Made by a program: the position numbers and the translations under genes | Assembly (NCBI GenBank): GCA_003164895.1 | Contig: PLUL01000014.1 | Location: forward strand, 100,954 to 164,953 | Source of the DNA: Bacteroidota bacterium | GTDB taxonomy: Bacteria > Bacteroidota > Bacteroidia > Palsa-948 | Direction: 5' to 3' | Length of the DNA: 64,000 bases | The notes under the pieces: generated by a model | What the model was told of the DNA's origin: nothing | Databases searched by the model: none | Seen by the model: the letters and a program-made list of their open reading frames with translations, nothing else | Shown: positions 1,693 through 48,991 of the stretch, one piece after another | How the letters are laid out: every line of letters starts with the position of its first letter | Position numbering within the stretch: position 1 is the stretch's first letter

Positions 1693-3411
1693 ATGAAAAA
1701 ACATTTACTCTGCTTTTTAATTATCGCTTGTCCGTTTTCAATTATCAATTGCTTTTCTCAAGGCACATGGACAGCACTTGCACATAATTCTCCCGATGCG
1801 AATGGTGGAGTAATGCTTTTGCTTTCGGATGGAACTGTAATGGCAAAAACTGTTTATGCCACCGGAGACACCACTCAGTTTGGAGTGGTTTGGGATAAAC
1901 TCACTCCTGATATTCATGGCAGTTATGTAAACGGAACATGGTCGCACCTTGCTTCCATGCATAATTCACGCCTTTATTTCGCTTCACAGGTGCTACGAGA
2001 TGGTAATGTATTTGTGGCAGGCGGTGAATATGGTACTGGAGATTCTCTTGCAGAAGTTTATAATACATTAACTAATAGCTGGACAATGGCTCCTCCAACA
2101 ATACCTTATATAGGCGATGCCAACTCGGAGATATTGCCTGATGGCAGAGTGCTTCTTTCTGTATTCATTCAAGACAATTCAACCATTTTTAATCCGAGTA
2201 CAAACACATGGTCAGCCGGAGCAGCTACTCATGGCTATTTGGATGAATCGGCTTGGGTAAAACTTCCTGATAACAGCATTCTGGCGGTTGACATGGGTTC
2301 TACAAGTTCTGAAAGATATATTCCTGCTACGAATCATTGGGTGGTAGATGGTATAGTACCCGATTCTCTTTATGATTCTTGGGGATATGAATCAGGTGCA
2401 GGATTTATGTTGCCCGATGGACGCGCTTTTTTTCTTGGTTCAACGGGACATACTGCTTATTATACACCAACAGGAAATACAAGTCCCGGAACTTGGGCTG
2501 TTGGTCCTGATATTCCGAATGGATATGGAACTCCCGATGCCGCAGCTGCCATGATGGTGAATGGAAAAATTCTTTGTGCTGTTTCACCTGCTCCGCGCGA
2601 CTCCAATGTTTTTTATAGTCCGACGGCATTCTTTGAATTTGATTATCTCACCAACTCCTTTACACAAGTAAGCGCGCCAGGTGTTACAGGAGACACTCTA
2701 AGTGAAGCTTGTTATGTAACCAACATGCTTGATCTGCCCAATGGAACGGTTCTTTTTTCGAATCAATATTCCAATCAATACTTTATTTACACTCCAAGCG
2801 GTTCTCAGCTTGCTTCCGGTATGCCTACAATAAATAATGTAACACGAAACGCATGTGTGTATACGATCACAGGAACATTATTCAATGGAATTTCTGAAGG
2901 TGCAGCGTATGGCGATGACTGGCAAATGGCAAGCAACTACCCCGTTATTCGTTTAACATCCGGAACGAATGTATATTATGTGCGCACATTTAACTGGAAC
3001 AGCACCGGAGTGCAAACAGGAACAAAGCCCGATACCACAGAATTCACTGTGCCTGCATCTGTACCGGCAGGAACTTATTCGCTGGTGGTTACCGCCAATG
3101 GCATTGCATCAAATCCTTTCACATTTAATTACACTACCTGTGGAAGCGGAATAGATGAATTGGAATCGTTAAACAATAGCGTGGTGGTTTATCCAAACCC
3201 ATCCAACGGAATGATGAATGTAAAATTGTTAATGGATTATAGCAAAACATCGAGCATGGAAGTTTATAGTATGATGGGAGAAAAAGTATATGAAGTCCAA
3301 TTTTCTTTACTGAATACCCAATTATCACTCGATGTTCCAAACGGAATTTATTTTCTTCATTTAAAAACCGAATTGGGAACAGCAGTAAAGAAAATAATTA
3401 TCAATCGTTAG
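1693..3411 (+). CDS. Secreted Kelch/galactose-oxidase-like beta-propeller protein with Ig-like (DUF1929-like) domain and T9SS C-terminal sorting domain
   Basis: Signal peptide; repeated propeller-like blades (GGEYGTGDS, LPDGRV, LPDGRAFFLGS); C-terminal ...VVYPNPSNGMMNVKL...GIYFLHLKTELGTAVKKIIINR is typical of a T9SS CTD. Confidence 0.55.
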   Translation: MKKHLLCFLIIACPFSIINCFSQGTWTALAHNSPDANGGVMLLLSDGTVMAKTVYATGDTTQFGVVWDKLTPDIHGSYVNGTWSHLASMHNSRLYFASQVLRDGNVFVAGGEYGTGDSLAEVYNTLTNSWTMAPPTIPYIGDANSEILPDGRVLLSVFIQDNSTIFNPSTNTWSAGAATHGYLDESAWVKLPDNSILAVDMGSTSSERYIPATNHWVVDGIVPDSLYDSWGYESGAGFMLPDGRAFFLGSTGHTAYYTPTGNTSPGTWAVGPDIPNGYGTPDAAAAMMVNGKILCAVSPAPRDSNVFYSPTAFFEFDYLTNSFTQVSAPGVTGDTLSEACYVTNMLDLPNGTVLFSNQYSNQYFIYTPSGSQLASGMPTINNVTRNACVYTITGTLFNGISEGAAYGDDWQMASNYPVIRLTSGTNVYYVRTFNWNSTGVQTGTKPDTTEFTVPASVPAGTYSLVVTANGIASNPFTFNYTTCGSGIDELESLNNSVVVYPNPSNGMMNVKLLMDYSKTSSMEVYSMMGEKVYEVQFSLLNTQLSLDVPNGIYFLHLKTELGTAVKKIIINR

Positions 3412-23722: not shown

Positions 23723-26347
23723 TTACCTAACCAAAGTAACACGCCCTACATATTTGTGGGTTTTATTATTTGTATCAACAATATTTATTTTCCATACATA
23801 AACATCTTCCTGGGCTAAATTACTACCGATTTTTCCATCCCAACCATTTGCAATATCATACGATTCAAATATTTTATTTCCCCATCTATCAAATATAAGT
23901 ATATGAAACGATTTAATATACGTTCCTTCGCCAAAAAATAATTCATTCTTACCATCGGCATTGGGAGTAAAACAATTGGGAATATAAAATGTGAACGGAG
24001 CTTCCACTCTTAAACAATGAATAGATGTATCTTTGCAGAATCCGCCAGCATCGGTTACAATAAGAGTGATACAATAAACTCCCGTATCGGAATATGTATG
24101 CGAAGGATTATGGGCAGAACTTGTATCCAAACTATTCGGATCACCAAAATTCCAAAACCAAGTTGCAGCATTGGTAGAATGATCAATACAATTAACCACT
24201 GCATCCAATAAATTTAAAGTGTCAGGATTAGCTGTGAACGCAGAAGTAGGTGGTCCGGTGGATGAAATATTGATTACCATTTGATTCGTACAGCCATTTG
24301 CATCAGCTACCAACACATTGTATGCTCCGGCAGCAAGATTGGAGATTGTTTGTGTTGATTGTACAGGATTTGTAAGCCATAAATAAGTATATCCGCCAAC
24401 GCCTCCGTTAGCATTTATAGTAGCCGTACCATTGGATAGTCCACACGAAGCGATAACAGAAGTTTGTGTAAGAGTAATAGCGGTTGGTTGTGTAATATTC
24501 ACTGATTGAGGAATTGTACATCCATTTGCATCTGAAACAACCACAGAATATGTTCCGGCAGATAAAGCGCTTGCTATTTGAGTATTCTGGCCGGTAGGAA
24601 TCCAAACATAATTATAGGGGGCTGTTCCCCCGGAGCCGGTTGCGGATGTACTTGCATCGCTTCCGCCTGCACAAGATACATTTGCAACTACCGAAGCAGT
24701 TGCTGCGATAGGGGTAGGTTGATTTACTGCAACTGTATAGGATGAACTGCAACCCGAAGCATCACTCACCACAACAGAATAAGTTCCGGCATTCAAATTA
24801 GAAACAGCACTGGAAACAGCGCCATTTGACCAGTGATAAATATAAGGCGCATTTAAACCATTGGTTGCAACTGATACGCTTCCATTGTTTCCTCCGTTAC
24901 AAGAAACACTGTTTGATGCCGTAGTAGCATTTAAAATTCCGGTAGATATTACTATAGTATCATTTCCGGTGCATGCTCCATTTGAAACAGTAAGAACATA
25001 AGTTGTTGTAGAAGCCGGATTTGCAACTGGATTAGAAATGCTCGGATTACTTAATCCTGCTACAGGACTCCACGTATAAGTAACTCCGCCGGTAGCATTT
25101 AATTGAACAGGTCCTCGACAAGTGGATGTGTCTCTGCCTGCATTAGGAACAGGAGCATTTAAAACATGAACCACCAATGGAATTGTAGTAGTTGCGGCAG
25201 GAGTACCATTATCAGCAGCAGTAAAATTAATTGTGTTATATCCAATATTTGAAGCTTGCGCAATAAGTTGTGCATTAAACTGTGAAGTGTTTCCGGATGT
25301 ATTTGTGAGAATTGAAAAACCATTCATGGTTGTAGTAGCATTTGCATTTGTAATTTGACCTGCTTCGGGCGACAACCAAAGAATATTAAATGGAGTAATA
25401 TCACCCACACAAGCAGTAACTGTATCGCAAATACCCAATCCATTTGCAATAGGCGGAATATTATTGCTTGAAGAACAACTGGTAAATGAAAACGATTGAT
25501 TATTTAACCATGCAACACCACTCGGAGCACCGTTAGGTCCGTTGTAAGTACTACCTGCCTGATCAAATGTACCGAACTGAATAAAATTAGTGCCATCACC
25601 CGAATTAGCACCCACTGTAGCTGCCGTTCCTCCAAATCCATTTGTTCCGCCGGAAGCATCTCCGGTAGTCCATTGCATTTCTTTATAACAAAACGAAACA
25701 TTATTTCCATTGGGAATGATTGGATCAACACCATTTGTCATAATCAACTGAAAAGTATTCACTTTATCGGAATGTGTATCGTAATATCCAACACCATCCC
25801 ATTGTATAATCATATAAGTAGGGGTAAGTTTATAATAAACAATGCCACTGGCTGGATCGCGTGTATCTACATCTCCCCAAAACGGAGCTACCATTACATA
25901 TTGAGTAGAAGGAAAAGTAGCTGCAGAAAAATCGGATTTAGCAACATCAAATGTAACATTTCCATTATTGTTTATGAATACTGAAGGGTATTGGTGACCA
26001 TACAAACAAAAGTTAAATCCAAGATTCATCTGAACGGTTGACCAATCATCATTGCGATAACTGGGAGCCACTCCTGGTCCACCACTCACTCCGCTACCAT
26101 CAAACTGAGCGATTTGCCATGAAGCATCGCGTGTTTTCCAGCAAGTACATCCATTAGTAGCAGGAGTAGGAATAATATTTCCGGGCAGATAAATAGGATC
26201 AATGGGAGTAGTCTTATTTATTATTTTTTCATTTCCGGTTAACATGCCTTGCTTTTTAAGCGCATTATAATCGAGGGATTGAGAATATGAATTATTCCCA
26301 ACCATAAGGAGGAACATTAATGCTGAATATGAAAGAACTTTATTCAA
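23723..26347 (-). CDS. T9SS type B C-terminal-domain adhesin with SprB repeats and a PKD domain
   Basis: Signal peptide; repeated SprB-type units (...NGGNNGSVSVATNGLNAPYIYHWSNG..., ...CAGGSDASTSATGSGGTAPYNYVW..., ...CGLSNGTATINANGGVGGYTYLW...); C-terminal gliding-motility CTD FYIPNCFTPNADGKNELF...FDRWGNKIFES...GWDGK. Confidence 0.8.
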   Translation of the reverse strand: MNKVLSYSALMFLLMVGNNSYSQSLDYNALKKQGMLTGNEKIINKTTPIDPIYLPGNIIPTPATNGCTCWKTRDASWQIAQFDGSGVSGGPGVAPSYRNDDWSTVQMNLGFNFCLYGHQYPSVFINNNGNVTFDVAKSDFSAATFPSTQYVMVAPFWGDVDTRDPASGIVYYKLTPTYMIIQWDGVGYYDTHSDKVNTFQLIMTNGVDPIIPNGNNVSFCYKEMQWTTGDASGGTNGFGGTAATVGANSGDGTNFIQFGTFDQAGSTYNGPNGAPSGVAWLNNQSFSFTSCSSSNNIPPIANGLGICDTVTACVGDITPFNILWLSPEAGQITNANATTTMNGFSILTNTSGNTSQFNAQLIAQASNIGYNTINFTAADNGTPAATTTIPLVVHVLNAPVPNAGRDTSTCRGPVQLNATGGVTYTWSPVAGLSNPSISNPVANPASTTTYVLTVSNGACTGNDTIVISTGILNATTASNSVSCNGGNNGSVSVATNGLNAPYIYHWSNGAVSSAVSNLNAGTYSVVVSDASGCSSSYTVAVNQPTPIAATASVVANVSCAGGSDASTSATGSGGTAPYNYVWIPTGQNTQIASALSAGTYSVVVSDANGCTIPQSVNITQPTAITLTQTSVIASCGLSNGTATINANGGVGGYTYLWLTNPVQSTQTISNLAAGAYNVLVADANGCTNQMVINISSTGPPTSAFTANPDTLNLLDAVVNCIDHSTNAATWFWNFGDPNSLDTSSAHNPSHTYSDTGVYCITLIVTDAGGFCKDTSIHCLRVEAPFTFYIPNCFTPNADGKNELFFGEGTYIKSFHILIFDRWGNKIFESYDIANGWDGKIGSNLAQEDVYVWKINIVDTNNKTHKYVGRVTLVR

Positions 26348-37956: not shown

Positions 37957-38226
37957 AGTTTTTATTTTTTTTAAGTTGTGTGTGTTTATGTTTGAAATTG
38001 TAACGCAAAGATTCTGCCAAAGTTGTTTTATTAATACACCTTTAACATTTTTTAACAGATAAATCTATAAACAAAAAAAATCAACATAACTCGCATTCAT
38101 CACATGAATATCATTCAAAACCAATTACTAACAATTGTTAAAAACCTTTGAATTATGAGTTCTATTAAAATAACTTTGCTACAGTTCTGATTTGCTAAAA
38201 AATCTCAGGAGAAAAGTATTGTCAAA

Positions 38227-38976
38227 ATGTCGGGGTCAAATAAATCATTATTGTTCTTGCTTGGACTCGTTTTAGGATTACTTGCCGGTGCAAGTTTTTT
38301 TATTTTCAAGATGGATGACATTTTAAAAAAGGTAAATCTGTTCAGGATGCCAAAGGATACAATTATCATTCAGCAGGCGAACAATATTGAGGATAAAAAA
38401 AGTAAAACAGAAATTAAAAAATACATCGGACAAAAAGATACATCACATAAATCAATGACTTCAGCCGAAATGCTCGCACAAAAATATTCAAGGGAAGTTC
38501 CCGTCAGAAGAGTGATGGCGGAAGCGGATTCTCTTTTGCATGATGTTGCGATTGCAAAAAAAGATTCCTCATCTGAATATTCAAATCAAAAATCTGCCGA
38601 TAATTTTATTGTAAAAAAAGATGAACTTCTGGATTCAAAAAATTTTGAAGTGATAAATCTCCAGCAAAATGAAAATGCAAATCCTTCCGATTCTATTTTG
38701 GAAAAAGTAAGCGGAATAAAAGATACAAAGAAAAATATTCTTGCTTCATTCAAAGTTGAATTCTGGCAGTCTCCAATTAATTACAAGGGTTTTAAAATGA
38801 CAAAAAATAAAATTGTTTTATTTGGAATTAATCCCGAAGACAACCTAAAACTTTTCCATTTGAATGACGACATCTTCATGAAACACAATCAGAATTATTA
38901 CAAATTATATTTCACCGATGATTTCAAACAATTTGAAAAAGTGACAGACACATCTATAATTGCTAAGTTAAAATGA
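38227..38976 (+). CDS. Hypothetical membrane-anchored protein
   Basis: N-terminal TM helix LLFLLGLVLGLLAGASFFIF; K/D/S-rich with no known motif; translationally coupled to dapF. Confidence 0.45.
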   Translation: MSGSNKSLLFLLGLVLGLLAGASFFIFKMDDILKKVNLFRMPKDTIIIQQANNIEDKKSKTEIKKYIGQKDTSHKSMTSAEMLAQKYSREVPVRRVMAEADSLLHDVAIAKKDSSSEYSNQKSADNFIVKKDELLDSKNFEVINLQQNENANPSDSILEKVSGIKDTKKNILASFKVEFWQSPINYKGFKMTKNKIVLFGINPEDNLKLFHLNDDIFMKHNQNYYKLYFTDDFKQFEKVTDTSIIAKLK

Positions 38977-39755
38977 GATTTGGATTTTATAAATATCAAG
39001 GCACAGGAAACGATTTCATCATTGTTGATAATCGCAAGTTGAAAATAAAGTTGAGCACAAAACAGATTGCGCATTTATGTCAACGGCATTTTGGAATTGG
39101 CGCAGATGGATTGATGCTTCTTAAGAATAAAAAAGGTCTTGATTTTGAAATGGTTTATTACAATTCAGATGGAAAAGAAAGCACGTTCTGCGGAAACGGA
39201 AGCCGTTGCATTGTTGCATTTGCAAAAAAATTGAGTGTAATCAAAAAATCAGAAACCACTTTCCTTGCTACGGATGGAATTCACACAGCTAAAATAAATG
39301 GAAATGTTATCAGCATGAAGATGAACGATGTGAAAAATATTGAAGTTGGGAGAAATTATTATTTACTAAATACTGGGTCTCCTCATTATGTGAAATTTAC
39401 AAGCGGAATAGAAGATGCAGACATGATTTCTCAAGGAAAAAATATTCGTTACAACGACAGATTCAAAAAAGAAGGTGTGAATGTGAATTTGGCAGAAAAA
39501 AATGGAAAAGGAATTTATGTCCGCACTTATGAGCGCGGTGTGGAAGACGAAACTCTTTCCTGCGGAACCGGAGTAACTGCAACGGCTTTAGCAGCATCCA
39601 TTCACGGAGTTTCAACATCAAAAAACCACAGCAAGATATTAACACAAGGCGGTGAATTAACAGTGCGTTTCCATAGAGGAAATCACAACACGTTTACCGA
39701 TATTTGGCTGGAAGGTCAGGCGAAATTTATATTTAAAGGAGAAATAGATATTTAA
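38973..39755 (+). CDS. dapF: Diaminopimelate epimerase
   Basis: YQGTGNDFIIVDN; catalytic FCGNGSRC and LSCGTG. Confidence 0.9.
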   Translation: MRFGFYKYQGTGNDFIIVDNRKLKIKLSTKQIAHLCQRHFGIGADGLMLLKNKKGLDFEMVYYNSDGKESTFCGNGSRCIVAFAKKLSVIKKSETTFLATDGIHTAKINGNVISMKMNDVKNIEVGRNYYLLNTGSPHYVKFTSGIEDADMISQGKNIRYNDRFKKEGVNVNLAEKNGKGIYVRTYERGVEDETLSCGTGVTATALAASIHGVSTSKNHSKILTQGGELTVRFHRGNHNTFTDIWLEGQAKFIFKGEIDI

Positions 39756-39857
39756 TGATTACACAGATAAAAAAAAAAGATTACACCGATTGCATTTTAC
39801 AAAAAAACATATCGGTGTAATTAAAATTAAATCGGTGCAATCAGTGCATTAAAAAGT
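39756..39857 (+). promoter_or_regulatory. Repeat-rich element upstream of the SMC-like operon: 11-bp perfect inverted repeat plus direct repeats
   Basis: ATTACACCGAT (39780-39790) and ATCGGTGTAAT (39811-39821) form a perfect inverted repeat; ATCGGTG recurs at 39831-39837; GATTACAC is duplicated at about 39757 and 39779; A-rich spacers. Confidence 0.45.
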
Positions 39858-41216
39858 ATGATAAAAAAATTAATGAGCCGCGAAGAGATTTTCGAAAGCA
39901 TTGCGCTTGATTTCGAATACCTGATTCCTCGCGATATAGAAACCATTTTGCTGCTTCTCACACTTAATTCAAAAATTGAGAATCAGGAAATTGACGACAT
40001 CTTTTCTCAAAAAGATTTTGAAGATGCAGTGGATGATGTGATTGTTCATTTAAAACGCGACCGGAATATTCAGCGGGAAAGTATTTCCAAAAGATTAAGC
40101 CAGCATTTTTATACAACGCTTAAAGTCGGTGAAGAATATCGTTATCAGCTAACCATTTTTGCAAAGGAGTTTTCAAATCTTCTAATGAACGAAGTAACTC
40201 CTAACTATGAGAATCTCGAATTGATACACACATTCAAACGCACATTGCCTGTTCAAGATGACGATGTAACTAATATTGAAAAATTCAACTATTGGTACAA
40301 ACACCACTACAGCGCTTCCAAGAAATTTATTCTTTCGCATACAGATAATCTCCAGTTGTTCGTAGATAAAAAAGTTGCGGAACTAAGAACGCTGCTGAAA
40401 CCAAATACAGAAAATCCGAAAGAACTTATCGGACAATTTCTTGTCATTTTCGAACAGCTCGGAAAGCAAACTGAAGGAGTAACCCAGGCGCTTCACTTCA
40501 AACAAGATATCATTGACAAGATAAAGAACTCAGAACCTAATTTTAAAGATGTTCGTCAGTCCTGGGAACTTTACGACAAGATAAATAACGAAGTGATAAT
40601 CTTCTTTGAAACCATTGACAGTCGCGTATTGAACATCAACGATAAAATTCAACAGGCGCGCACGAGATTAAAATCTTTGTATGACAATTTGCGCTACAAA
40701 CAGCAATACAAACTCAAAGTTGAAAAATTCCTGTTGATGCTTTTGAAACACAGCAAAATTGTTGATGAAAAAATTGCATTGCCTCATAATGTTGAGAAAA
40801 AAGAAATTCCATATTTCAGAGACAAATTCGTTTACCCTCCTGTTATTGACTTTGGCGAATATCACAAAATAGAATCGCCATTCTATCAGGAAGATGAAGA
40901 GTTCAAAAGATTGAGCGAACTGGAAAAAATGAAACAACTTGCGCGCGCAGAAAATACAATCAAATGGATGAGCGACATCCGCAGCGAAATAGAACTTGGT
41001 CGTGAAGTTATTTTCGAACAATGGATGGATAAAATTCTTGATAAGGAGCAAAATCTGGAAGTACCGATAGATGTTTGCTTTAGCTTAATTGATGAATATA
41101 AAAACAGAGAAGATGTTCAATTAGATATTGAAAGAAAACTGATGACAACACTTCATTCAAATGTTGCTCTTTGGAAATTAAAAATCAAACCCAATCAAAC
41201 AGAACTTTCCGAATAA
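39858..41216 (+). CDS. Hypothetical 452-aa protein; candidate kleisin-like MksF/JetA-type subunit by position and size
   Basis: No catalytic motif; K/E-rich helical protein of MksF/JetA-like length sitting directly upstream of a 231-aa gene and the SMC-like gene. Confidence 0.4.
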   Translation: MIKKLMSREEIFESIALDFEYLIPRDIETILLLLTLNSKIENQEIDDIFSQKDFEDAVDDVIVHLKRDRNIQRESISKRLSQHFYTTLKVGEEYRYQLTIFAKEFSNLLMNEVTPNYENLELIHTFKRTLPVQDDDVTNIEKFNYWYKHHYSASKKFILSHTDNLQLFVDKKVAELRTLLKPNTENPKELIGQFLVIFEQLGKQTEGVTQALHFKQDIIDKIKNSEPNFKDVRQSWELYDKINNEVIIFFETIDSRVLNINDKIQQARTRLKSLYDNLRYKQQYKLKVEKFLLMLLKHSKIVDEKIALPHNVEKKEIPYFRDKFVYPPVIDFGEYHKIESPFYQEDEEFKRLSELEKMKQLARAENTIKWMSDIRSEIELGREVIFEQWMDKILDKEQNLEVPIDVCFSLIDEYKNREDVQLDIERKLMTTLHSNVALWKLKIKPNQTELSE

Positions 41217-41223
41217 ATAAAAT

Positions 41224-41919
41224 ATGGAGAACACCGACACACAACAAGCAATCAACTACGAGTACAATTACAGCTACGAATTTCTGAGCAGCGAACGTGC
41301 GCGCAAGCATTTTGCCGATACGGATTTTGCGCTGAGAAGCGGGAGACACATTCAGAACTTCGGAAACGATTTCAAGATGTGGGATTTCGTAAATGATTTT
41401 TACGAGAAGGGACTCGCAAAATATTACATGGAACTTTTGGGCATGGTGCTAAAAAAAGAATTCAATGAAAGAGAATCGTATTTCTTTTTGGATTTTCCTG
41501 AAGAAGGAAATAAAGGCAAATTCGGCTATGACAGAACCTATGCGCTGGACGACCGTCTCGTGATATTTGCAATCCTTTTGCTGAACCTTTACAAGGAGAA
41601 ATTCTTTGAGAACAAGGAAGTGAAATGGGACGAACTGCTTTACATCACCGAGGAAGGCGAGAACAAAGACCTCTGGCAAAAACTTCTTTTCGGGGAGAAC
41701 AAACGCAACTTTACACCTTCGGAAAAAGAAGAAGTACGCAGAAAAATTGAACGCACTTTGCAAACCTGCGAGCGCATGGGCTGGATTCGATGGATCAGCT
41801 ACGAAGATTTGCATTTTGAAATCATGCCCAGCATTGACCGCATTGCAAAACTTTATCAGACAGAAATAAATAACGTGGAACTGTTAACGGAATATTTGGA
41901 TAATAATTTACCATCATAA
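41224..41919 (+). CDS. Hypothetical 231-aa acidic protein; candidate MksE/JetB (MukE-like) subunit
   Basis: Size and position match MksE/JetB; acidic/aromatic composition; 8-nt spacing from the upstream gene. Confidence 0.4.
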   Translation: MENTDTQQAINYEYNYSYEFLSSERARKHFADTDFALRSGRHIQNFGNDFKMWDFVNDFYEKGLAKYYMELLGMVLKKEFNERESYFFLDFPEEGNKGKFGYDRTYALDDRLVIFAILLLNLYKEKFFENKEVKWDELLYITEEGENKDLWQKLLFGENKRNFTPSEKEEVRRKIERTLQTCERMGWIRWISYEDLHFEIMPSIDRIAKLYQTEINNVELLTEYLDNNLPS

Positions 41920-41973
41920 ACTGAAAAGAAAACATAAACCGAAAAAAGAATCTTGTAAATCGTATATATAATC

Positions 41974-44900
41974 ATGGCAAGCTATCCTAAAATCTACTCT
42001 CTCGACACCGTTGGTGTGAGACAACATTATAATTCTGAATATCTTTTTCACGCGGTGAGGACGGACTTCACTGGCGGAAACGGGCTTGGAAAATCCATCA
42101 TTGCCGATTTGATGCAATTGATAATTGTTCCGAGGCGCGATATGTGGAAACCAGGCACGGAAGGAATCGGCAAGGACGAAAGACGTGTGGAAGGAATTCC
42201 GTTGAACAAAGAATATATTCAATATGCGTATGCATTTCTGAACATTGAAAGAAAACAAGGACAGTTTTTAACGATTGGAGTTTACATTTCAAAGACTCCG
42301 CGCATTCCGGTGCGACCGTTCATCATTCAGGCTGGAAATAATTTTGAAGGCGGAAATCTCGTTCCGTTCAGCCGCCCGTTGCACCCTTCGGATTTCATGA
42401 ATGACAGCAAGACCATTTATGATCTGCGCGAACTTTCGAAGCACATGAAAGAAAAACACTCCTTATATATGAAGGATTTCTTTCAGACAGAAGGGATTAT
42501 GCAGTATTACGATCTGATGTACAAGAACAATATTCTTCCTGTAAATCTTACAAAACCTGAGAACTTAAAAACATATTCAAAGGTCATTCAGTCGTTTGCA
42601 AGAGCGAAATCTCTTGACATCACCAATTCGAAAAGTCTTCAGAATTTTTTATTCGAAGACAATGAAGAAATAAAAAGAACTTTTGAAGAACAGAAAGATC
42701 AGCTTCACAGTTTGATAAAACAGTACAGAGAAAATCATTTTCACACACAGGAACTTCAGCAGAAGCAGAAAAAACTTTTATCGCTTCTTGAAACCGAAAG
42801 AAAAAGCGTTGCCGCCAAAGAAGAGTTTTTAAAATCAAGCGCAACATTTTCTCATAAGCAACACAACAATGCGCTTGCTCGACACGAGAACAATACCAAG
42901 CACATTGAAACTTCCACTAAAAATCTTTTAAGACAGAAGAACGAACTTGAAAAAGTTACGGAAGAACTTTACATCTGCTACACCAATCTCCAGAAGGTTT
43001 GTTTGTTGATGCGAGAAAAATACGAAGTGCTTCTGAAAGATTTCAGCGATGAAACCATTCAAGCGCGCAAGTTATCTGCCGACCTTCTTCGCGATAAAAT
43101 AAATTTGATCGCAGGACTTTATCCGATAGTCGCGCAATACGAAAGCGTTGAAAAAATTCAGCACAAGTTGCATGAACAACAATCTTACAGAGGAAAGAAA
43201 AATAGTTTAAATAAAATTCTTTCGCTTTATTCTCTTGCAGATTTTGAACAATCACTTTGGGCGAAAGAAGATTTCCTTTCTGCTTCCCGACATTACAATG
43301 AAAAACTGAGCGAACTTCCTCAGCAGATAGAAGAACTTGAAACACTTGTTGCACTTTTTGAAGGAACACGAGATGATTCGTTTTTCCACTGGGCGATTCA
43401 AAATAATAAGCCGCTTACCAAAGAACAGGAAACTGTTCTGATGTATTTGAAAGAACTTCCGGTAACAAAACCTACAGATGTTGAAGAAGGAACACGCTAC
43501 ATTGCAAATCCATCTGCACTCCTTGGGAATTTTGAGAAAGATGAGAATGGCGGCATCTGGATAACATTCGGTGAAGTACGCGAATTCGTTCCGCTTATTA
43601 AAAAGCAACGCTTTACGAATACAAAAAATCTAAAAACGATCTTAGAAAAAGATACTAAGGCGATCAAGCTTTCACTGGAAGAAGCGCATCAGGAATTAAA
43701 AATGATACAGCGACTTTCTGATGAATTAACTGAGATTGGGTTCAATCAGGAACTTACCGACATCTGGGAAACTAAAGTTGAGATAGAGAATTACACAATC
43801 GACAATTCTTTGAACGAAGAAAAAATTGAACTCATCAAAGCAAACTGGGATGACATTCAAAAATTAGATGCGCTTCAGCTTGAATTCTCTACCATAGAAC
43901 ACGATGCAATTGAGATTGCCAAAAAACAAAGCGACATTAAGAACAAAATGAATTCAACCAAACAGGCGTACGGAACCTGTGAATATGAATTCACCAAACT
44001 GAGATTGGAAAGCAATATTGAAATTGAAATTCCGAATGAAGATTATTCTACGTTGGAATTGGATGCGCTGGATGTAATAAAAAATGGTTTCGAATCGAAA
44101 ATTAAAACCTGCAACGAGCAAAAAAACTGGAGCGAGAAATACATGATCGCTGCAGAAGGAGAATTGCGCGGTTACAGAAGCAGCGAACCAATCCTCAAAC
44201 AGCAAATGGAAGAATCGCTGGTTGTCTTCAACGAGAAGAAACAACTGCTGGAATCTGAAACCGGAATTGTATTTGAACCAACATTAATTACAGGTGAACT
44301 CAACGAAAATATTATTGAACGATTGGAAAGAAAGAGCGAAGAACTTTTAGAAGCATATCACGAAGAGTTTACACGCGTTACAGAAGCATTTGAAGAAACG
44401 AGAGGCGATAAAAATCCTGAACTCATCACCGATAAATTTAATTTCCGCACATTAGTAAATATTCTCTGCGGAAAATTGGGATTAGAAGGATTAGGTCCAG
44501 AATTGGAACGACTGAACGAAGAGTTGAAAAAATTCGGAGACCTTCAGCTTACAATTATAATAGATGTTTTCAAAAAAGTGGAAGTGCAGTACAACGCTTT
44601 CAGAAAACTAATCACCGAACTGAACTTCTTCTTCAAGGAAAACCGAATCAGCGGAGTATATAATTTTCAGGTGGACTTTAACGACCGCAGAGATATTTCT
44701 GTGGATTGGATTCGCAGAATGCGCGAACATGCAAAGTACCAGCGTTTGTCTGCAAAACTTTTCATCACTGCAGAAAATGAAGTTTCTCCCGAGCATCTCA
44801 TCCTCAATATTGCAAAAACACTCAGCGATGTAGGCGACTGTGAAATTGGTGATCTGCTCGATCCGAAATTTTATTTCGACCTGCGCGTAGGATTGTTTGA

Positions 44901-45588
44901 CGAGCAAGGCAACCGTTATCCCGGTTCGGGCGGTGAAGCGTACACAGCGCTCGCGCTTCTCTGCATCGGCAGAATGTCGGTCATTCAGCGCGACAAGAAC
45001 CGTACGGGAGTTCGCTTCATCATCATTGAAGAGTTATCGAACATTGACGACACCAACTTTGGTTTGTTCCCCGAGATTGCAAAAATGTTCGGCTACCAGC
45101 TGCTCACGATGACACCAAAACCTTTTGGTTCGTACAGCGAAAGCGAATGGTACCTGCACATGCTCATCCGCGGAAAAGACAAGAATATTAATTACCAGCC
45201 GATGAGTTTCTTCCGTACAAAAATGAGCAAGCAGCGACTGGAAGAATACATGGGCGATGGAAAAATAATTTCGAAAGTGGTGGAAGAAGCAGAAGTTAAG
45301 GAAGAAACGCCAACTATTACCGAGACCGGACATAACCTTGTTCTGGCAAATGTAATTGAAGGATTTATTGACCACGTTACAAACGAAATTGAAATTCCAA
45401 TTATTGCTGATGAAATTTTAAACTTAACTGAAGAATCTCCTGTTAATGAAGATGTAATTAAGGATGAAATTCCTGAACCTCCACAAATTAGCAGCGAACT
45501 TCAGGAAGAACGCAAACAGGAATTTTTAGGATTGAGCGAGGAAGAAAAAACGGAAGAGAAGAAAGATGAGAATAAAGGAGAAGAATAA
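41974..45588 (+). CDS. SMC-like ATPase of MukB/MksB/JetC type (1204 aa)
   Basis: N-terminal Walker A DFTGGNGLGKSIIADLMQLIIVP (compare MukB [23 protein letters not shown]); Q-loop QGQFLT; roughly 700-aa K/E/Q-rich coiled-coil middle; C-terminal signature PGSGGEAYTALALL, Walker B VRFIIIEEL and D-loop SNIDD; acidic disordered tail. Confidence 0.65.
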   Translation: MASYPKIYSLDTVGVRQHYNSEYLFHAVRTDFTGGNGLGKSIIADLMQLIIVPRRDMWKPGTEGIGKDERRVEGIPLNKEYIQYAYAFLNIERKQGQFLTIGVYISKTPRIPVRPFIIQAGNNFEGGNLVPFSRPLHPSDFMNDSKTIYDLRELSKHMKEKHSLYMKDFFQTEGIMQYYDLMYKNNILPVNLTKPENLKTYSKVIQSFARAKSLDITNSKSLQNFLFEDNEEIKRTFEEQKDQLHSLIKQYRENHFHTQELQQKQKKLLSLLETERKSVAAKEEFLKSSATFSHKQHNNALARHENNTKHIETSTKNLLRQKNELEKVTEELYICYTNLQKVCLLMREKYEVLLKDFSDETIQARKLSADLLRDKINLIAGLYPIVAQYESVEKIQHKLHEQQSYRGKKNSLNKILSLYSLADFEQSLWAKEDFLSASRHYNEKLSELPQQIEELETLVALFEGTRDDSFFHWAIQNNKPLTKEQETVLMYLKELPVTKPTDVEEGTRYIANPSALLGNFEKDENGGIWITFGEVREFVPLIKKQRFTNTKNLKTILEKDTKAIKLSLEEAHQELKMIQRLSDELTEIGFNQELTDIWETKVEIENYTIDNSLNEEKIELIKANWDDIQKLDALQLEFSTIEHDAIEIAKKQSDIKNKMNSTKQAYGTCEYEFTKLRLESNIEIEIPNEDYSTLELDALDVIKNGFESKIKTCNEQKNWSEKYMIAAEGELRGYRSSEPILKQQMEESLVVFNEKKQLLESETGIVFEPTLITGELNENIIERLERKSEELLEAYHEEFTRVTEAFEETRGDKNPELITDKFNFRTLVNILCGKLGLEGLGPELERLNEELKKFGDLQLTIIIDVFKKVEVQYNAFRKLITELNFFFKENRISGVYNFQVDFNDRRDISVDWIRRMREHAKYQRLSAKLFITAENEVSPEHLILNIAKTLSDVGDCEIGDLLDPKFYFDLRVGLFDEQGNRYPGSGGEAYTALALLCIGRMSVIQRDKNRTGVRFIIIEELSNIDDTNFGLFPEIAKMFGYQLLTMTPKPFGSYSESEWYLHMLIRGKDKNINYQPMSFFRTKMSKQRLEEYMGDGKIISKVVEEAEVKEETPTITETGHNLVLANVIEGFIDHVTNEIEIPIIADEILNLTEESPVNEDVIKDEIPEPPQISSELQEERKQEFLGLSEEEKTEEKKDENKGEE

Positions 45589-45616
45589 TGCATTAAAGGA
45601 TTAACAATTTCAAAAT

Positions 45617-46030
45617 ATGGAAGTGCGCATTGGAAATAATAGCGAGTATTTGCTATTGAGAAATATAACATTAGAAAGTCTTCAAAATTATTTTTATAAT
45701 ACAACAATTGAAATTCATTTGAATGGTTTTTCTTCAAACATTAAAGCATTTGGGGAAATTAATGAATTGACAGGATTAATTCTCAACCTCAAAAAGCTAT
45801 ATCAAAAACTTGATTTTCAATTTACATTTGGGAATCTGGAAGATAACATAGGAATAACAGTCCAGACAAATCCGACAAATGCAGGACAAATTGAATTGAA
45901 AGGGTTTCTCAAGAATAGCTATGGCACAGGGAAACTTGAATTTAAAATAGTAACAGACCAATCTTATTTGCCTGAAACAATAAACCAATTAGAGATTGTA
46001 TTATCCGATTTAAAAATTAACACGAAATAA
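45617..46030 (+). CDS. Hypothetical 137-aa protein immediately downstream of the SMC-like gene
   Basis: Starts 29 nt after the SMC-like stop; very AT-rich; no recognisable motif. Confidence 0.4.
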   Translation: MEVRIGNNSEYLLLRNITLESLQNYFYNTTIEIHLNGFSSNIKAFGEINELTGLILNLKKLYQKLDFQFTFGNLEDNIGITVQTNPTNAGQIELKGFLKNSYGTGKLEFKIVTDQSYLPETINQLEIVLSDLKINTK

Positions 46031-46044
46031 GATATTCCTGAATC

Positions 46045-46806
46045 GTGCAAGCACCCTACCAAACACTTTCTATCTTTTTTATTCTAATTGCATCATCATT
46101 CTCGCTTTCAAGTTGCAGCACCAAGAAAAATCTTGAGCTTGCTTTAGCCAATCCCACTACCACCACTTCACTCACACTCAGACGGTGCAACTTAAAAACA
46201 TTACCTCCCGAGATCGGCACTCTTAAAAACTTAAAAACTTTAAAAATCTATAAATGCAAACTCGAAACGCTTCCTCCCGAGATCGGGAAACTTGGCAATC
46301 TTGAAACACTTATTTTAAGTTCCAACAAATTAAAAACGCTACCACCTGAAATTGGTAGTTTTGAAAAATTAAAATACCTTTCTCTTTCCTATAACAAATT
46401 AGAAAAACTACCGAAAGAAATCGGAAATTTAATAAGTCTTGAAGTTCTTTCTCTGAACGGAAATAAATTAACCGAATTACCACAGGAAATTGGCAAACTG
46501 AATGGTCTTACATATTTGAACATTGAAAAAAATAACATCAGCGAACTTCCTTCATCAATTGAAAATTTCACCATCCTGAAAACTTTTATCATCGGCAGAA
46601 ATCTATTCAGTAAGTTACCGGAGCAGATCGGCAGACTTTCTCATTTGGTGGAATTAAATGTTTCGGGCAGCGGTGCCATGCTTCAGATACCAAACAGCAT
46701 TTGCGAAATTTCTTCTCTCGAAAATCTTTATGTGGATGCTTCCACTCAAATTCCTTATTGCCTGCAATCGCGCCATGATTTGAGGTTTAAAATTATTGTT
46801 CAATAA
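46045..46806 (+). CDS. Leucine-rich-repeat lipoprotein
   Basis: Lipoprotein signal ILIASSFSLSSCS; about nine tandem 23-residue LRRs of the L..LP.EIG.L.NL..L.L..N.L type. Confidence 0.7.
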   Translation: MQAPYQTLSIFFILIASSFSLSSCSTKKNLELALANPTTTTSLTLRRCNLKTLPPEIGTLKNLKTLKIYKCKLETLPPEIGKLGNLETLILSSNKLKTLPPEIGSFEKLKYLSLSYNKLEKLPKEIGNLISLEVLSLNGNKLTELPQEIGKLNGLTYLNIEKNNISELPSSIENFTILKTFIIGRNLFSKLPEQIGRLSHLVELNVSGSGAMLQIPNSICEISSLENLYVDASTQIPYCLQSRHDLRFKIIVQ

Positions 46807-46851
46807 TTCCTGCACATATTTCGGAAAAGAAGTTATTCTTAACTTCGTATA

Positions 46852-47400
46852 ATGCAGTCGCCTTACAAAATCTCCAATCTTCTCCCTGCCACCGATGCGG
46901 TGCTGATGAACGGTGTATATCTTGTTCTGCTTTATGCAACTCGCATTCCTCCTCACCTGCTCGTCTCCGTGAATGGAAAACTATTTACCCTGAGCGTGAA
47001 AGGTGCGAGTGTGGACGGAGAACTATCCGCATTGCTAACGCTCATCCGCAGAAAAAAGATTGAAACTATTTTCATTCGTTTGCAAATGCCAGTGCTTTTA
47101 ACTATGGAACAACTGCGCGAAGAAATCAGGAATTGCACTCTCGCCTACCCGCGTGCGGATATCGGAATTGCAAGCTGCCTCACTCCCATAAAAGATTTCT
47201 GCCATTCGGTTTACGATACGGATACAAAAAATATAAACTTAATTTTCGATCTACTGCCAAAACTTCAGGAAAGAAATGCTATGCAAGATTGTTATCAGTT
47301 GAATCTTCACCTAACTTCCAATAATTTCGAAATAAAAAGATACGAAGTGAATGATGTGAACGAAGCGATCAGACATTCATCGCTTATAATGGCAATCTAA
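46852..47400 (+). CDS. Hypothetical protein
   Basis: 182-aa ORF with no recognisable motif; same strand and tightly spaced in the cluster. Confidence 0.4.
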   Translation: MQSPYKISNLLPATDAVLMNGVYLVLLYATRIPPHLLVSVNGKLFTLSVKGASVDGELSALLTLIRRKKIETIFIRLQMPVLLTMEQLREEIRNCTLAYPRADIGIASCLTPIKDFCHSVYDTDTKNINLIFDLLPKLQERNAMQDCYQLNLHLTSNNFEIKRYEVNDVNEAIRHSSLIMAI

Positions 47401-47413
47401 TCAACAAAAAACT

Positions 47414-47920
47414 GTGTTCTTATCTAGCAAAAAAATATTCCTGCGCGCTGTTCTGCCATCGGATGTGTATCTGCTTTACAAATGGGAGAATGACAAAGCC
47501 AATTGGGAGGTAAGCGGAACAAAAAAGCTATTTACTAAAAAAGAAATTTCAGATTTCATTTCTACTCAGAAAGATATTTACCTCGACAAACAGCTGCGAC
47601 TTATGATTTGTATGCAATCTTCATCAAAAAGTGAAGATGCAATAGGATGCATTGACTTGTTTGAGTTTGACGAAACAAAACTGAAAGCTGGAATCGGAAT
47701 TCTCATAGACAAAAAAAACAGAAAGAACGGTTATGCTTCCGAAGCATTACATTTGCTGGTCAAATACAGTTTTAAAATTTTATATTTGAAAGAATTATTT
47801 TGTAATATTTCAGAGGAGAACAAAGCAAGTATGGAACTTTTTAAAAAGCAGAAATTCAAAATCATCAGTAAGAAGAAAAATATTTATTCTCTTCAGTTAT
47901 TCAACAATAAGTATTTTTGA
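47414..47920 (+). CDS. GNAT family N-acetyltransferase (RimJ/RimL-like)
   Basis: GCIDLFEFDE...GIGILIDKKNRKNGYASEAL acetyl-CoA binding motif A. Confidence 0.7.
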   Translation: MFLSSKKIFLRAVLPSDVYLLYKWENDKANWEVSGTKKLFTKKEISDFISTQKDIYLDKQLRLMICMQSSSKSEDAIGCIDLFEFDETKLKAGIGILIDKKNRKNGYASEALHLLVKYSFKILYLKELFCNISEENKASMELFKKQKFKIISKKKNIYSLQLFNNKYF

Positions 47921-47929
47921 ATTACGATC

Positions 47930-48991
47930 ATGGCTAAAAAAAAGAACTCGATTTTCAAAAAAATACTTCTTTGGTTGCTGCTCATCATTCTGCTGACAGC
48001 AGGCGCAGCTGCTTATATCGGCTACAGAATGATCTTTCTCCCTAATGTTTCGCTTGGAGAAAAAAAATCAGAAATAGTTTTAATTCCGACCGGTTCAAAT
48101 TTTGAGGATGTCATAAGGATTTTGTCCGGTGCAAATATTTTAAAGAACAAAATTTCTTTCATCCGCCTTGCAAAACTGAAAAAATACAAAGACAATGTAA
48201 AACCCGGGCGATACCGAATTTTCGACAGCATCAATAATAATCAGCTGATAAATATTTTACGCACAGGAATGCAGGAACCGGTTACCGTTACTTTCACCAA
48301 CATCCGAACAAAAGACCAATTGGTTTCGCGCATCTGCAAAAAACTGGAAGCGGATTCGATCGAACTTCGTGCGCTGCTCTCCAACGATAAATACCTCAAA
48401 GATAATTTCGGATTTAAAGGTGAAACCATTCTGGCGATGTTCATTCCGAATTCATACGAATTCAAATGGAACACATCCGCAAAACAATTTGTGGAACGCA
48501 TGCAAACCGAATACAAAAAATTCTGGACTCCTGAAAGAAGGCAAAAAGCAAAAGCAATAAACCTGACACAAATACAAGTGTCAATTCTTGCTTCCATCGT
48601 ACAATCGGAACAATTGCAATTTCCTGATGAACGTCCGACCATTGCAGGACTTTATCTGAATCGTTTGAAAATCGGAATGTGTTTACAAAGCGACCCGACA
48701 ATTATTTATGCCATTGGAGATTTCAGCATCAATCGCGTGCTTGACAAAGACAAAGAATTTTCTTCTCCTTATAATACATACAAATGTTCCGGTTTGCCGC
48801 CCGGCCCGATTTACATTCCAGAAATTTCATCGTTAGAAGCAGTGCTGAATTACCAAAAGAATGATTTCCTTTATATGTGCGCCAAGGAAGATTTTTCGGG
48901 CAGACATAATTTTGCTAAAATACTTGCCGAACACAACCGCAATGCTGAGAAATACCGAAAAGCGCTGAACAAAAACAAAATAATGAGGTAG
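47930..48991 (+). CDS. mltG: Endolytic murein transglycosylase MltG (YceG-like)
   Basis: N-terminal TM anchor; conserved YNTYKCSGLPPGPIYIPEISSLEAVLN (MltG NTY...GLPPGPI motif). Confidence 0.85.
   Translation: MAKKKNSIFKKILLWLLLIILLTAGAAAYIGYRMIFLPNVSLGEKKSEIVLIPTGSNFEDVIRILSGANILKNKISFIRLAKLKKYKDNVKPGRYRIFDSINNNQLINILRTGMQEPVTVTFTNIRTKDQLVSRICKKLEADSIELRALLSNDKYLKDNFGFKGETILAMFIPNSYEFKWNTSAKQFVERMQTEYKKFWTPERRQKAKAINLTQIQVSILASIVQSEQLQFPDERPTIAGLYLNRLKIGMCLQSDPTIIYAIGDFSINRVLDKDKEFSSPYNTYKCSGLPPGPIYIPEISSLEAVLNYQKNDFLYMCAKEDFSGRHNFAKILAEHNRNAEKYRKALNKNKIMR

Follow-up and report, generated by a model that had tools for sequence, protein, structure and literature searches.

Which genes occupy the place of the JetD nuclease in a Wadjet-like operon that lacks it, and do they work with the operon that they follow? 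This question is raised by a 64,000-nucleotide (nt) stretch of a Bacteroidota bacterium (assembly GCA_003164895.1, contig PLUL01000014.1, positions 100,954 to 164,953 of the forward strand; the whole stretch analysed is called the window hereafter), in which the gene of an SMC (structural maintenance of chromosomes)-like ATPase is followed by an open reading frame (ORF) for 137 amino acids (aa) and by the gene of a 253-aa leucine-rich repeat (LRR) lipoprotein. A first-pass annotation made from the letters of the sequence had proposed both as novel accessory components of a Wadjet-like system, or else as hitch-hiking cargo of the same acquisition event. The reading that we prefer, and to which we assign a probability of roughly 0.7, is that the 137-aa ORF is an orphan WapI-like immunity gene sitting in a variable slot, that the LRR lipoprotein is unrelated to it, and that neither of them works with the JetD-less SMC triad.

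The 137-aa ORF (45617..46030, + strand, ATG start) was correctly placed and framed by the annotation except for its distance from the SMC stop codon, which is 28 nt (45589..45616) and not 29 nt. At the ORF's own base composition, the chance of an open frame of 137 codons is about 3e-6 per start, and the frame is therefore not a chance ORF. Its AT-richness was rightly noted, the GC content being 29.2% (25% at third codon positions, GC3) where the window has 37.3%, the SMC gene 39.5% and the LRR gene 36%. The description of its product as free of any detectable motif does not hold, as the Pfam family PF24716 (WapI-like immunity) matches residues 9–130 over profile positions 7–135 of 138, with an E value of 1e-13 and 52.1 bits, well over its gathering score of 27. 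An exhaustive phmmer search of 1.84 billion representative proteins retrieved 63 homologues at E ≤ 1e-3, nearly all of them single-domain proteins of 130–150 aa that share the motif D-Q-[ST]-[FY]-L-P; a word-indexed single-sequence search had given one relative, so that the exhaustive search was needed. A profile search with the family returned 18 proteins, every one of which (18/18) already carried the PF24716 annotation. The 137-aa protein has no signal peptide. WapI, after which the family is named, serves Bacillus subtilis as the immunity protein to its Rhs-family tRNase toxin WapA, which it neutralises (PMC4436062).

The structure prediction and fold search that the annotation had suggested point in the same direction. 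The AlphaFold2 model, computed from a 19-sequence alignment, reaches a pLDDT of 91.5 and a pTM of 0.83, while prediction from the single sequence reaches a pLDDT of only 33. The predicted fold consists of two β4-α repeats (β4-α-β4-α) and is Whirly/PUR/MRP-like, as in CdiI. Structural matches of the model show 8–12% sequence identity, and a sequence search of the PDB with the family profile gave nothing meaningful, the best match being a designed protein at E 0.078. The Whirly-like fold has been described as a versatile, recurrent toxin-binding immunity scaffold that includes the CdiI structures 5FFP and 4NTQ (PMC9424270). When the 137-aa and 253-aa ORFs were tested for a JetD/MksG-type Toprim nuclease, neither the JetD_C profile of Pfam (PF09983) nor the JetD profiles of PADLOC matched.

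The genomic surroundings of the homologues, which are denoted by L numbers like all loci compared here, are those of conflict systems and mobile elements in several cases. The homologue in L011 lies 14 nt downstream of the gene of an RHS-repeat protein of more than 1333 aa, and the one in L010 belongs to an array of small ORFs together with an RHS fragment. In L013 the homologue overlaps the end of a large truncated ORF and adjoins relaxase and TrwB-like coupling-protein genes, and in L012 it adjoins an IS91-type transposase and an integrase. The closest relative, in L102 (48–55% identity depending on the method), is next to a PIN_3 (PIN-domain) toxin gene; in L103 the homologue follows a thioesterase-like gene, as read from the translated sequence, and in L014 no gene was called within 760 bp upstream. 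Parts of an SMC triad were present in none of these seven loci (L010–L014, L102, L103). The co-occurrence of homologues with jetABC-like triads, which the annotation had set beforehand as the test of its proposal, was thus not found, and by its own terms the proposal falls.

An identical 137-aa protein is present in 14 public contigs, with the same arrangement in all five places listed, which come from one sample series, the metagenome-assembled genome (MAG) GCA_003168055.1 and a JGI metagenome; the 14 contigs probably represent one population. In one public assembly of this population (L098, ERZ28664818 scaffold_2015) a stretch of unknown bases breaks the SMC gene into two ORFs, which is an assembly artefact and no pseudogene.

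To place the ORF in the history of its neighbourhood we compared 88 loci of the SMC family, nine from genomes and 79 from metagenomes, with SMC identities of 28–97%. A profile of the WapI-like family run against all ORFs of at least 60 aa in these loci found the window ORF only, and no member in any other locus (0/88). The close relatives (L001–L007, L018, L019 and L068; SMC identity 59–83%) share their synteny with the window: a sigma factor gene, htrA, an unknown gene, dapF and the triad, and then a 182-aa gene, a GNAT gene and mltG. What varies is the place directly behind the SMC gene. There the window carries the WapI-like gene, L001 a 177-aa gene like those of outer membrane protein (OMP) β-barrels and L005 a 131-aa PpiC rotamase gene, each of them with the LRR gene; L018 carries a PpiC-like gene (148 aa) and no LRR gene; in L004/L068 and L019 the LRR gene itself comes directly after SMC; and in L003 and L007, which have no LRR gene, the 182-aa gene does so. 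The 137-aa gene is a later insertion, confined to one species.

The junction behind the SMC gene (45589–46044 in the window) is accordingly a hotspot, with three different single genes in four related genomes: the WapI-like gene, the OMP β-barrel gene and the PpiC rotamase gene, the last in two genomes. Its left edge in the window is the 28-nt spacer, and the right edge of the variable region is the 182-aa gene (46852..47400, + strand). Neither a recombinase nor repeats were seen at the slot, the flanking gaps of which measure 0–32 nt; integron-like attC sites in these gaps were considered and rejected, 0–32 nt being too short for them.

The second gene (46045..46806, + strand, GTG start) lies 14 nt downstream of the 137-aa ORF, and its description as a lipoprotein with about nine eukaryote-like 23-residue LRRs proved accurate. 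A lipobox L-S-S-C at residues 21–24, read by eye against [LVI][ASTVI][GAS]C, ends the hydrophobic N-terminus (residues 8–24, LSIFFILIASSFSLSSC), and a lipobox-like Cys is kept in all LRR orthologues; by prediction, the product is exported and held in the cell envelope by a lipid anchor. Eight full repeats of 23–24 residues with the pattern LxxLxLxxNxLxxLPxEIGxL are followed by a partial ninth, six of them matching a strict regular expression at exact 23-residue spacing with degenerate units on either side. The repeats are of the SHOC2 or plant R-protein type and are matched by LRR_14 (1e-34) and LRR_8 (2.5e-30); since all NCBIfam scores are far under the family cutoffs, the protein belongs to none of the named NCBIfam LRR families. 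Similar SHOC2-type proteins form more than 220 clusters, bacterial as well as eukaryotic. Orthologues with 64–85% identity occur only in L001, L004/L068, L005 and L019, that is in five of eight close relatives (of these five, two seem to be one genome), and the more distant loci have none. With a ratio of nonsynonymous to synonymous substitution rates (dN/dS) of about 0.09 against L005, the LRR gene is clade-restricted and vertically inherited. Being exported, as its lipobox predicts, the LRR protein could not act with a cytoplasmic SMC DNA motor.

The triad itself belongs to a divergent Wadjet/MksBEFG-like family, as judged from sequence comparison, and the literature yielded no description of a Bacteroidota Wadjet/MukBEF-like family. 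Its first gene (39858..41216, + strand) encodes a 452-aa protein in the kleisin (MksF/JetA) position, as suggested by its place in the conserved triad; the protein has no match in Pfam, PADLOC or the PDB, and none to JetA, MksF or MukF, and, wherever the DNA of a related locus extends to it, the gene is conserved and always first. The second gene (41224..41919, + strand) encodes a 231-aa MksE/MukE/JetB-like subunit, which matches the Pfam MksE family (PF21980, 1.5e-14) far better than the JetB profile of PADLOC (1.1e-3); matches to MukE (2.8e-5) and to MukE in the PDB (1e-3) are found as well. The third gene (41974..45588, + strand) encodes the 1204-aa MukB/JetC-like SMC ATPase, with matches to MukB_N in Pfam (1e-6) and to the MukB head in the PDB (3e-3); among proteins of solved structure, MukE and MukB are thus closest in sequence to these two subunits. 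PADLOC found no JetA or JetC among the window proteins, and in the window and the one JetD-containing locus scanned with it (L008) the first gene gave no match and the other proteins weak ones. Walker A, the signature SGG and the Walker B-like EE are invariant across relatives with and without JetD. Purifying selection on the triad is strong, with a dN/dS of 0.044 for the SMC gene against L005 at a dS of 0.92; as dS was saturated for several pairs, only the values of the window with L005 and with L001 were used. In the subclade of the window the triad stands at a fixed site (dapF ... mltG), while its flanks differ in the sister subclade, and it is vertically inherited.

An acidic low-complexity C-terminal tail of the SMC protein (about residues 1095–1204; 45256–45588 in the window) was observed only in the subclade with at least 59% SMC identity, its carriers being the window, L001, L003–L005, L018 and L019. 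Total protein length varies there from 1172 to 1355 aa, and a motif E-E-R-K-Q-E-F-L-G is conserved near the end of the tail. In JetD-containing relatives and in the clade with 45–49% identity the SMC protein ends at about 1100 aa and lacks the tail.

The annotation was also right in that a Toprim nuclease normally stands at this position: a JetD-like gene follows SMC in distant relatives and is missing in the window. In each of the roughly 41 loci that combine an SMC identity of at most 43% with sufficient DNA downstream, a gene for 280–313 aa has its start at the SMC stop codon or shortly ahead of it. Its products carry the invariant residues E171, D212 and D214 in the context C-E-N ... D-W-D, a Toprim-like E...DxD pattern. 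JetD_C of Pfam matches 13 of 33 of these proteins, at best with E 2.3e-6, PADLOC JetD matches are weak, and the best PDB sequence match is MksG (8b7f), with the same motifs aligned at an E value of only 0.42. The designation JetD-like is thus a putative one that combines weak profile matches with motif conservation and position. The gene is absent from all 18 loci (18/18) with an SMC identity of at least 45%, a complete SMC gene and downstream DNA, and tblastn with the family's own JetD-like proteins found no JetD remnant in the window (at E ≤ 10) or in its close relatives. In a neighbour-joining tree of the SMC cores the JetD-less loci, at least 18 with the window among them, form one clade nested among JetD-containing ones, which points to a single loss of JetD. 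The deep long-branch tips L042, L045, L076 and L083 are unreliable and were ignored; the SMC gene of L076 is cut by the contig end, where the 'longest ORF' rule must have picked another protein. JetD was lost long before the 137-aa gene arrived, and the 137-aa gene is no replacement for it.

Among the JetD-containing loci, L009 (MTER01000033.1), labelled 'Candidatus Altiarchaeales archaeon', holds a four-gene system the JetD-like protein of which is about 75% identical to that of the Bacteroidia MAG L008. The label is probably the result of mis-binning, or else the system was recently transferred.

Taken as a whole, the preferred explanation would run as follows. The 137-aa gene would stem from polymorphic-toxin systems of the Rhs, WapA or CDI (contact-dependent inhibition) type and would have entered behind the SMC gene in this species only. 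Its product would stay in the cytoplasm where, by analogy with WapI and the WapA tRNase and with CdiI and CdiA-CT, it may bind and block a C-terminal nuclease-type toxin domain delivered by competitors. With no toxin gene beside it, the gene would act like the orphan immunity genes of Bacteroidales. The LRR lipoprotein would be exported and lipidated via Sec and LspA, its solenoid presenting a protein-binding surface in the envelope. The triad would be a MukBEF/MksBEF-like complex derived from a divergent four-gene Wadjet-like system, the JetD-like Toprim nuclease having been lost once in the ancestor of the whole clade, and it would have been kept in nuclease-free form ever since.

The gene is called an orphan because no toxin gene is found upstream of it or among the large ORFs of the window. 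The position directly downstream of an Rhs/WapA-type toxin gene, a feature of the WapI family, is seen in L011; in the window the upstream gene is that of the SMC ATPase. The ten largest non-SMC ORFs include no Rhs-like gene and encode peptidases, type IX secretion system cargo, a glycosyltransferase, OmpA-like and CarboxypepD_reg-domain proteins, MutS, HtrA and a sigma factor.

Several observations weigh against the preferred explanation. A cognate toxin was identified neither in the 64-kb window, to which the inspection for toxins was limited, nor for the closest homologues, and these (L014, L102 and L103; 44–55% identity) are themselves orphans in unrelated contexts. Immunity has been shown experimentally only for the distant WapI of B. 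subtilis, so that for this subclade the assignment is one by family membership and fold. In Whirly, PUR-alpha and MRP1/2, that fold serves to bind single-stranded nucleic acids. Finally, the gaps of 28 nt and 14 nt, with no terminator-like site in them, would fit a functional link of the 137-aa gene to SMC. The last argument is tempered by the packing of the whole stretch from 38.2 to 49.0 kb, which is as tight as that around the 137-aa gene. No terminator-like site was found on the + strand between 45000 and 48500, in a promoter and terminator scan that performed at chance level and whose calibration does not cover Bacteroidota promoters. Bacteroidetes-type TAnnTTTG motifs occur at 38171 and 49074 and not between the SMC stop and the 137-aa start. 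From the short gaps and the lack of a terminator-like site, read-through transcription of the 137-aa gene from the SMC gene is probable.

Four other explanations have to be weighed. The 137-aa gene might be the functionless relic of a decayed toxin-immunity cassette that drifts neutrally and is expressed by read-through only, as the lack of a cognate toxin nearby, the atypical composition and the confinement to one species would allow. We regard this as unlikely, given that the frame is intact over its full length, that the family-conserved positions G90, D114 and Q115 are all present and that the fold model is confident; the identical protein in 14 contigs is a weak sign of selection, these contigs probably coming from one population.

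An explanation that we consider improbable takes the 137-aa product for a Whirly/PUR-like protein that binds single-stranded nucleic acids in a role outside both toxin immunity and the SMC module. The predicted fold, shared with Whirly, PUR-alpha and MRP1/2, is its starting point, yet the sequence family is an immunity family and not Whirly or PUR, and the identity to the structural matches is 8–12%. The patchy, species-specific distribution, the low GC content and the homologues near Rhs genes and mobile elements fit conflict systems better.

Very little speaks for a role of the 137-aa protein, alone or jointly with the LRR protein, as a new accessory or effector subunit in place of JetD in a Wadjet-like system, along the lines of the accessory components proposed by the first-pass annotation. 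The gene does stand in the exact position of the JetD-like gene of distant relatives, the short gaps suggest co-transcription with SMC, and the Whirly-like fold binds DNA or RNA in other families. Against this, the gene occurs in one species and in 0/88 other SMC-family loci, and its homologues, which live without any SMC module, never adjoin SMC genes; JetD was lost once at the base of the clade, the other members of which hold different genes or none in the slot; the protein has no nuclease motif and belongs to the immunity family PF24716; and the LRR gene is found in only five of eight close relatives, with a lipobox that predicts an extracytoplasmic product. We give hardly any credence either to a stronger form in which this SMC took on the Whirly-fold protein, in this species alone, as a partner that binds nucleic acids. 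The alternative offered by the annotation, hitch-hiking cargo of the same acquisition, is right in that neither gene is related to the SMC module and wrong in its timing, as the triad is vertically inherited, JetD was lost much earlier and the 137-aa gene came later.

That the 137-aa and LRR genes, 14 nt apart on the same strand, are one two-gene cassette acquired and working together is scarcely tenable, because the LRR gene stands without the 137-aa gene in L001, L004/L068, L005 and L019, preceded there by a different gene or by none, the GC contents differ (29% against 36%), and one product would be cytoplasmic and the other exported.

The orphan immunity gene being preferred for the 137-aa ORF, the clade that lost JetD once is the more notable feature of the locus, as the 137-aa and LRR genes belong to known kinds. 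We tentatively suggest, at somewhat less than even odds, that in an uncultured Bacteroidota clade a four-gene, highly divergent Wadjet-like system of plasmid defence became an MksBEF-like SMC complex free of the nuclease, the vacated site becoming a hotspot for single-gene insertions such as that of the WapI-like gene. This suggestion draws on the single loss of JetD, the fixed housekeeping site (dapF ... mltG) in the subclade of the window, the dN/dS of 0.04, the intact ATPase motifs and the acidic tail gained in the subclade of the window. If true, it would independently parallel the descent from defence systems that has been proposed for Pseudomonas aeruginosa MksBEF and for MukBEF. The matched nuclease-containing and nuclease-free relatives could be used to learn how SMC defence systems become chromosomal condensins. 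New Wadjet accessory proteins in place of JetD would have been of consequence for the field of SMC-based immunity. The evidence speaks against them, and it cautions that a position beside an SMC gene is a poor guide to function in tightly packed Bacteroidota chromosomes.

Regarding the wider neighbourhood, an unbroken run of genes on the same strand extends from 38227 to 48991, in the order 249-aa gene, dapF, 452-aa gene, 231-aa MksE-like gene, 1204-aa SMC-like gene, 137-aa gene, 253-aa LRR gene, 182-aa gene, GNAT gene and mltG (YceG). The 249-aa ORF (38227–38976) has an N-terminal hydrophobic segment and no family match, overlaps the start of dapF by 4 nt and is conserved at 43–81% in relatives; the Bacteroidetes-type −7 motif TAACTTTG at 38171 precedes it. 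The 182-aa protein has no match in Pfam, NCBIfam or PADLOC; all close relatives with DNA extending to its gene conserve it at 61–84% identity, and on contigs that are long enough the GNAT acetyltransferase and mltG genes come after it. Further away, the window encodes two type IX secretion substrates, a Kelch-repeat protein with a Por_Secre_tail (1693–3411) and a NIDO/SprB/PKD protein with a CHU_C domain (23723–26347). These two substrates, together with the sigma factor, htrA, mutS and mltG genes, identify the window as core Bacteroidota chromosome.

Among known systems, WapI of B. subtilis is the nearest to the 137-aa protein, which shares with it the above-threshold PF24716 match, the size of about 135–150 aa and the single cytoplasmic domain, and at least one homologue of which is encoded directly downstream of an RHS-repeat toxin gene. 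The case differs from WapI in that the neighbour is an SMC ATPase and not a toxin, that the host is a Bacteroidota MAG and not a Firmicute, that any link of the protein to a toxin is a predicted one, and that its closest homologues are orphans too. With the Whirly-like ('sPC4L') CdiI proteins of Burkholderia dolosa (5FFP, 'Immunity 23 family') and Enterobacter cloacae (4NTQ) the model shares the predicted fold of two β4-α repeats; sequence identity is 6–8%, the Pfam families are different, and the CdiI genes adjoin cdiA toxin genes.

Orphan immunity genes have been documented in Bacteroidales (bioRxiv 10.1101/471110; PMC10470768; PMC12247911). Like these genes and their acquired interbacterial defence (AID) clusters, the 137-aa gene has no cognate toxin, a patchy distribution at the strain or species level and an atypical composition. 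AID clusters are arrays on mobile elements, often with recombinases, whereas the 137-aa gene stands singly in a slot of the core chromosome with neither recombinase nor repeats, and its protective role is a prediction. It thereby adds an orphan immunity gene that stands alone, from environmental (peat, groundwater) Bacteroidota, to those studied in the gut Bacteroidales.

The LRR lipoprotein has the same 23-residue LxxLxLxxNxLxxLPxxIGxL repeats as other SHOC2-type bacterial LRR proteins, such as the LRR domains of Xanthomonas XopL, XopAC and XopAE and the LIC_11051-like proteins of Leptospira. The latter presumably share its lipoprotein signal; unlike the Xanthomonas effectors, the 253-aa protein carries no effector domain, be it an E3 ligase or Fic.

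With MksBEF-like systems the triad shares its composition of a kleisin-position gene, an MksE-like gene and a MukB-like SMC gene and no Toprim gene, and the tree supports a four-gene ancestor; it differs from them by its great divergence, by a loss that occurred independently in Bacteroidota and by the additional acidic C-terminal tail of SMC, all read from sequence. Compared with Wadjet (JetABCD) and MksBEFG it has no adjacent JetD/MksG gene, whereas about 41 distant members of its own family have one, and because JetD is absent from its clade and present in those distant members, the triad is best described as a JetD-less, MksBEF-like derivative.

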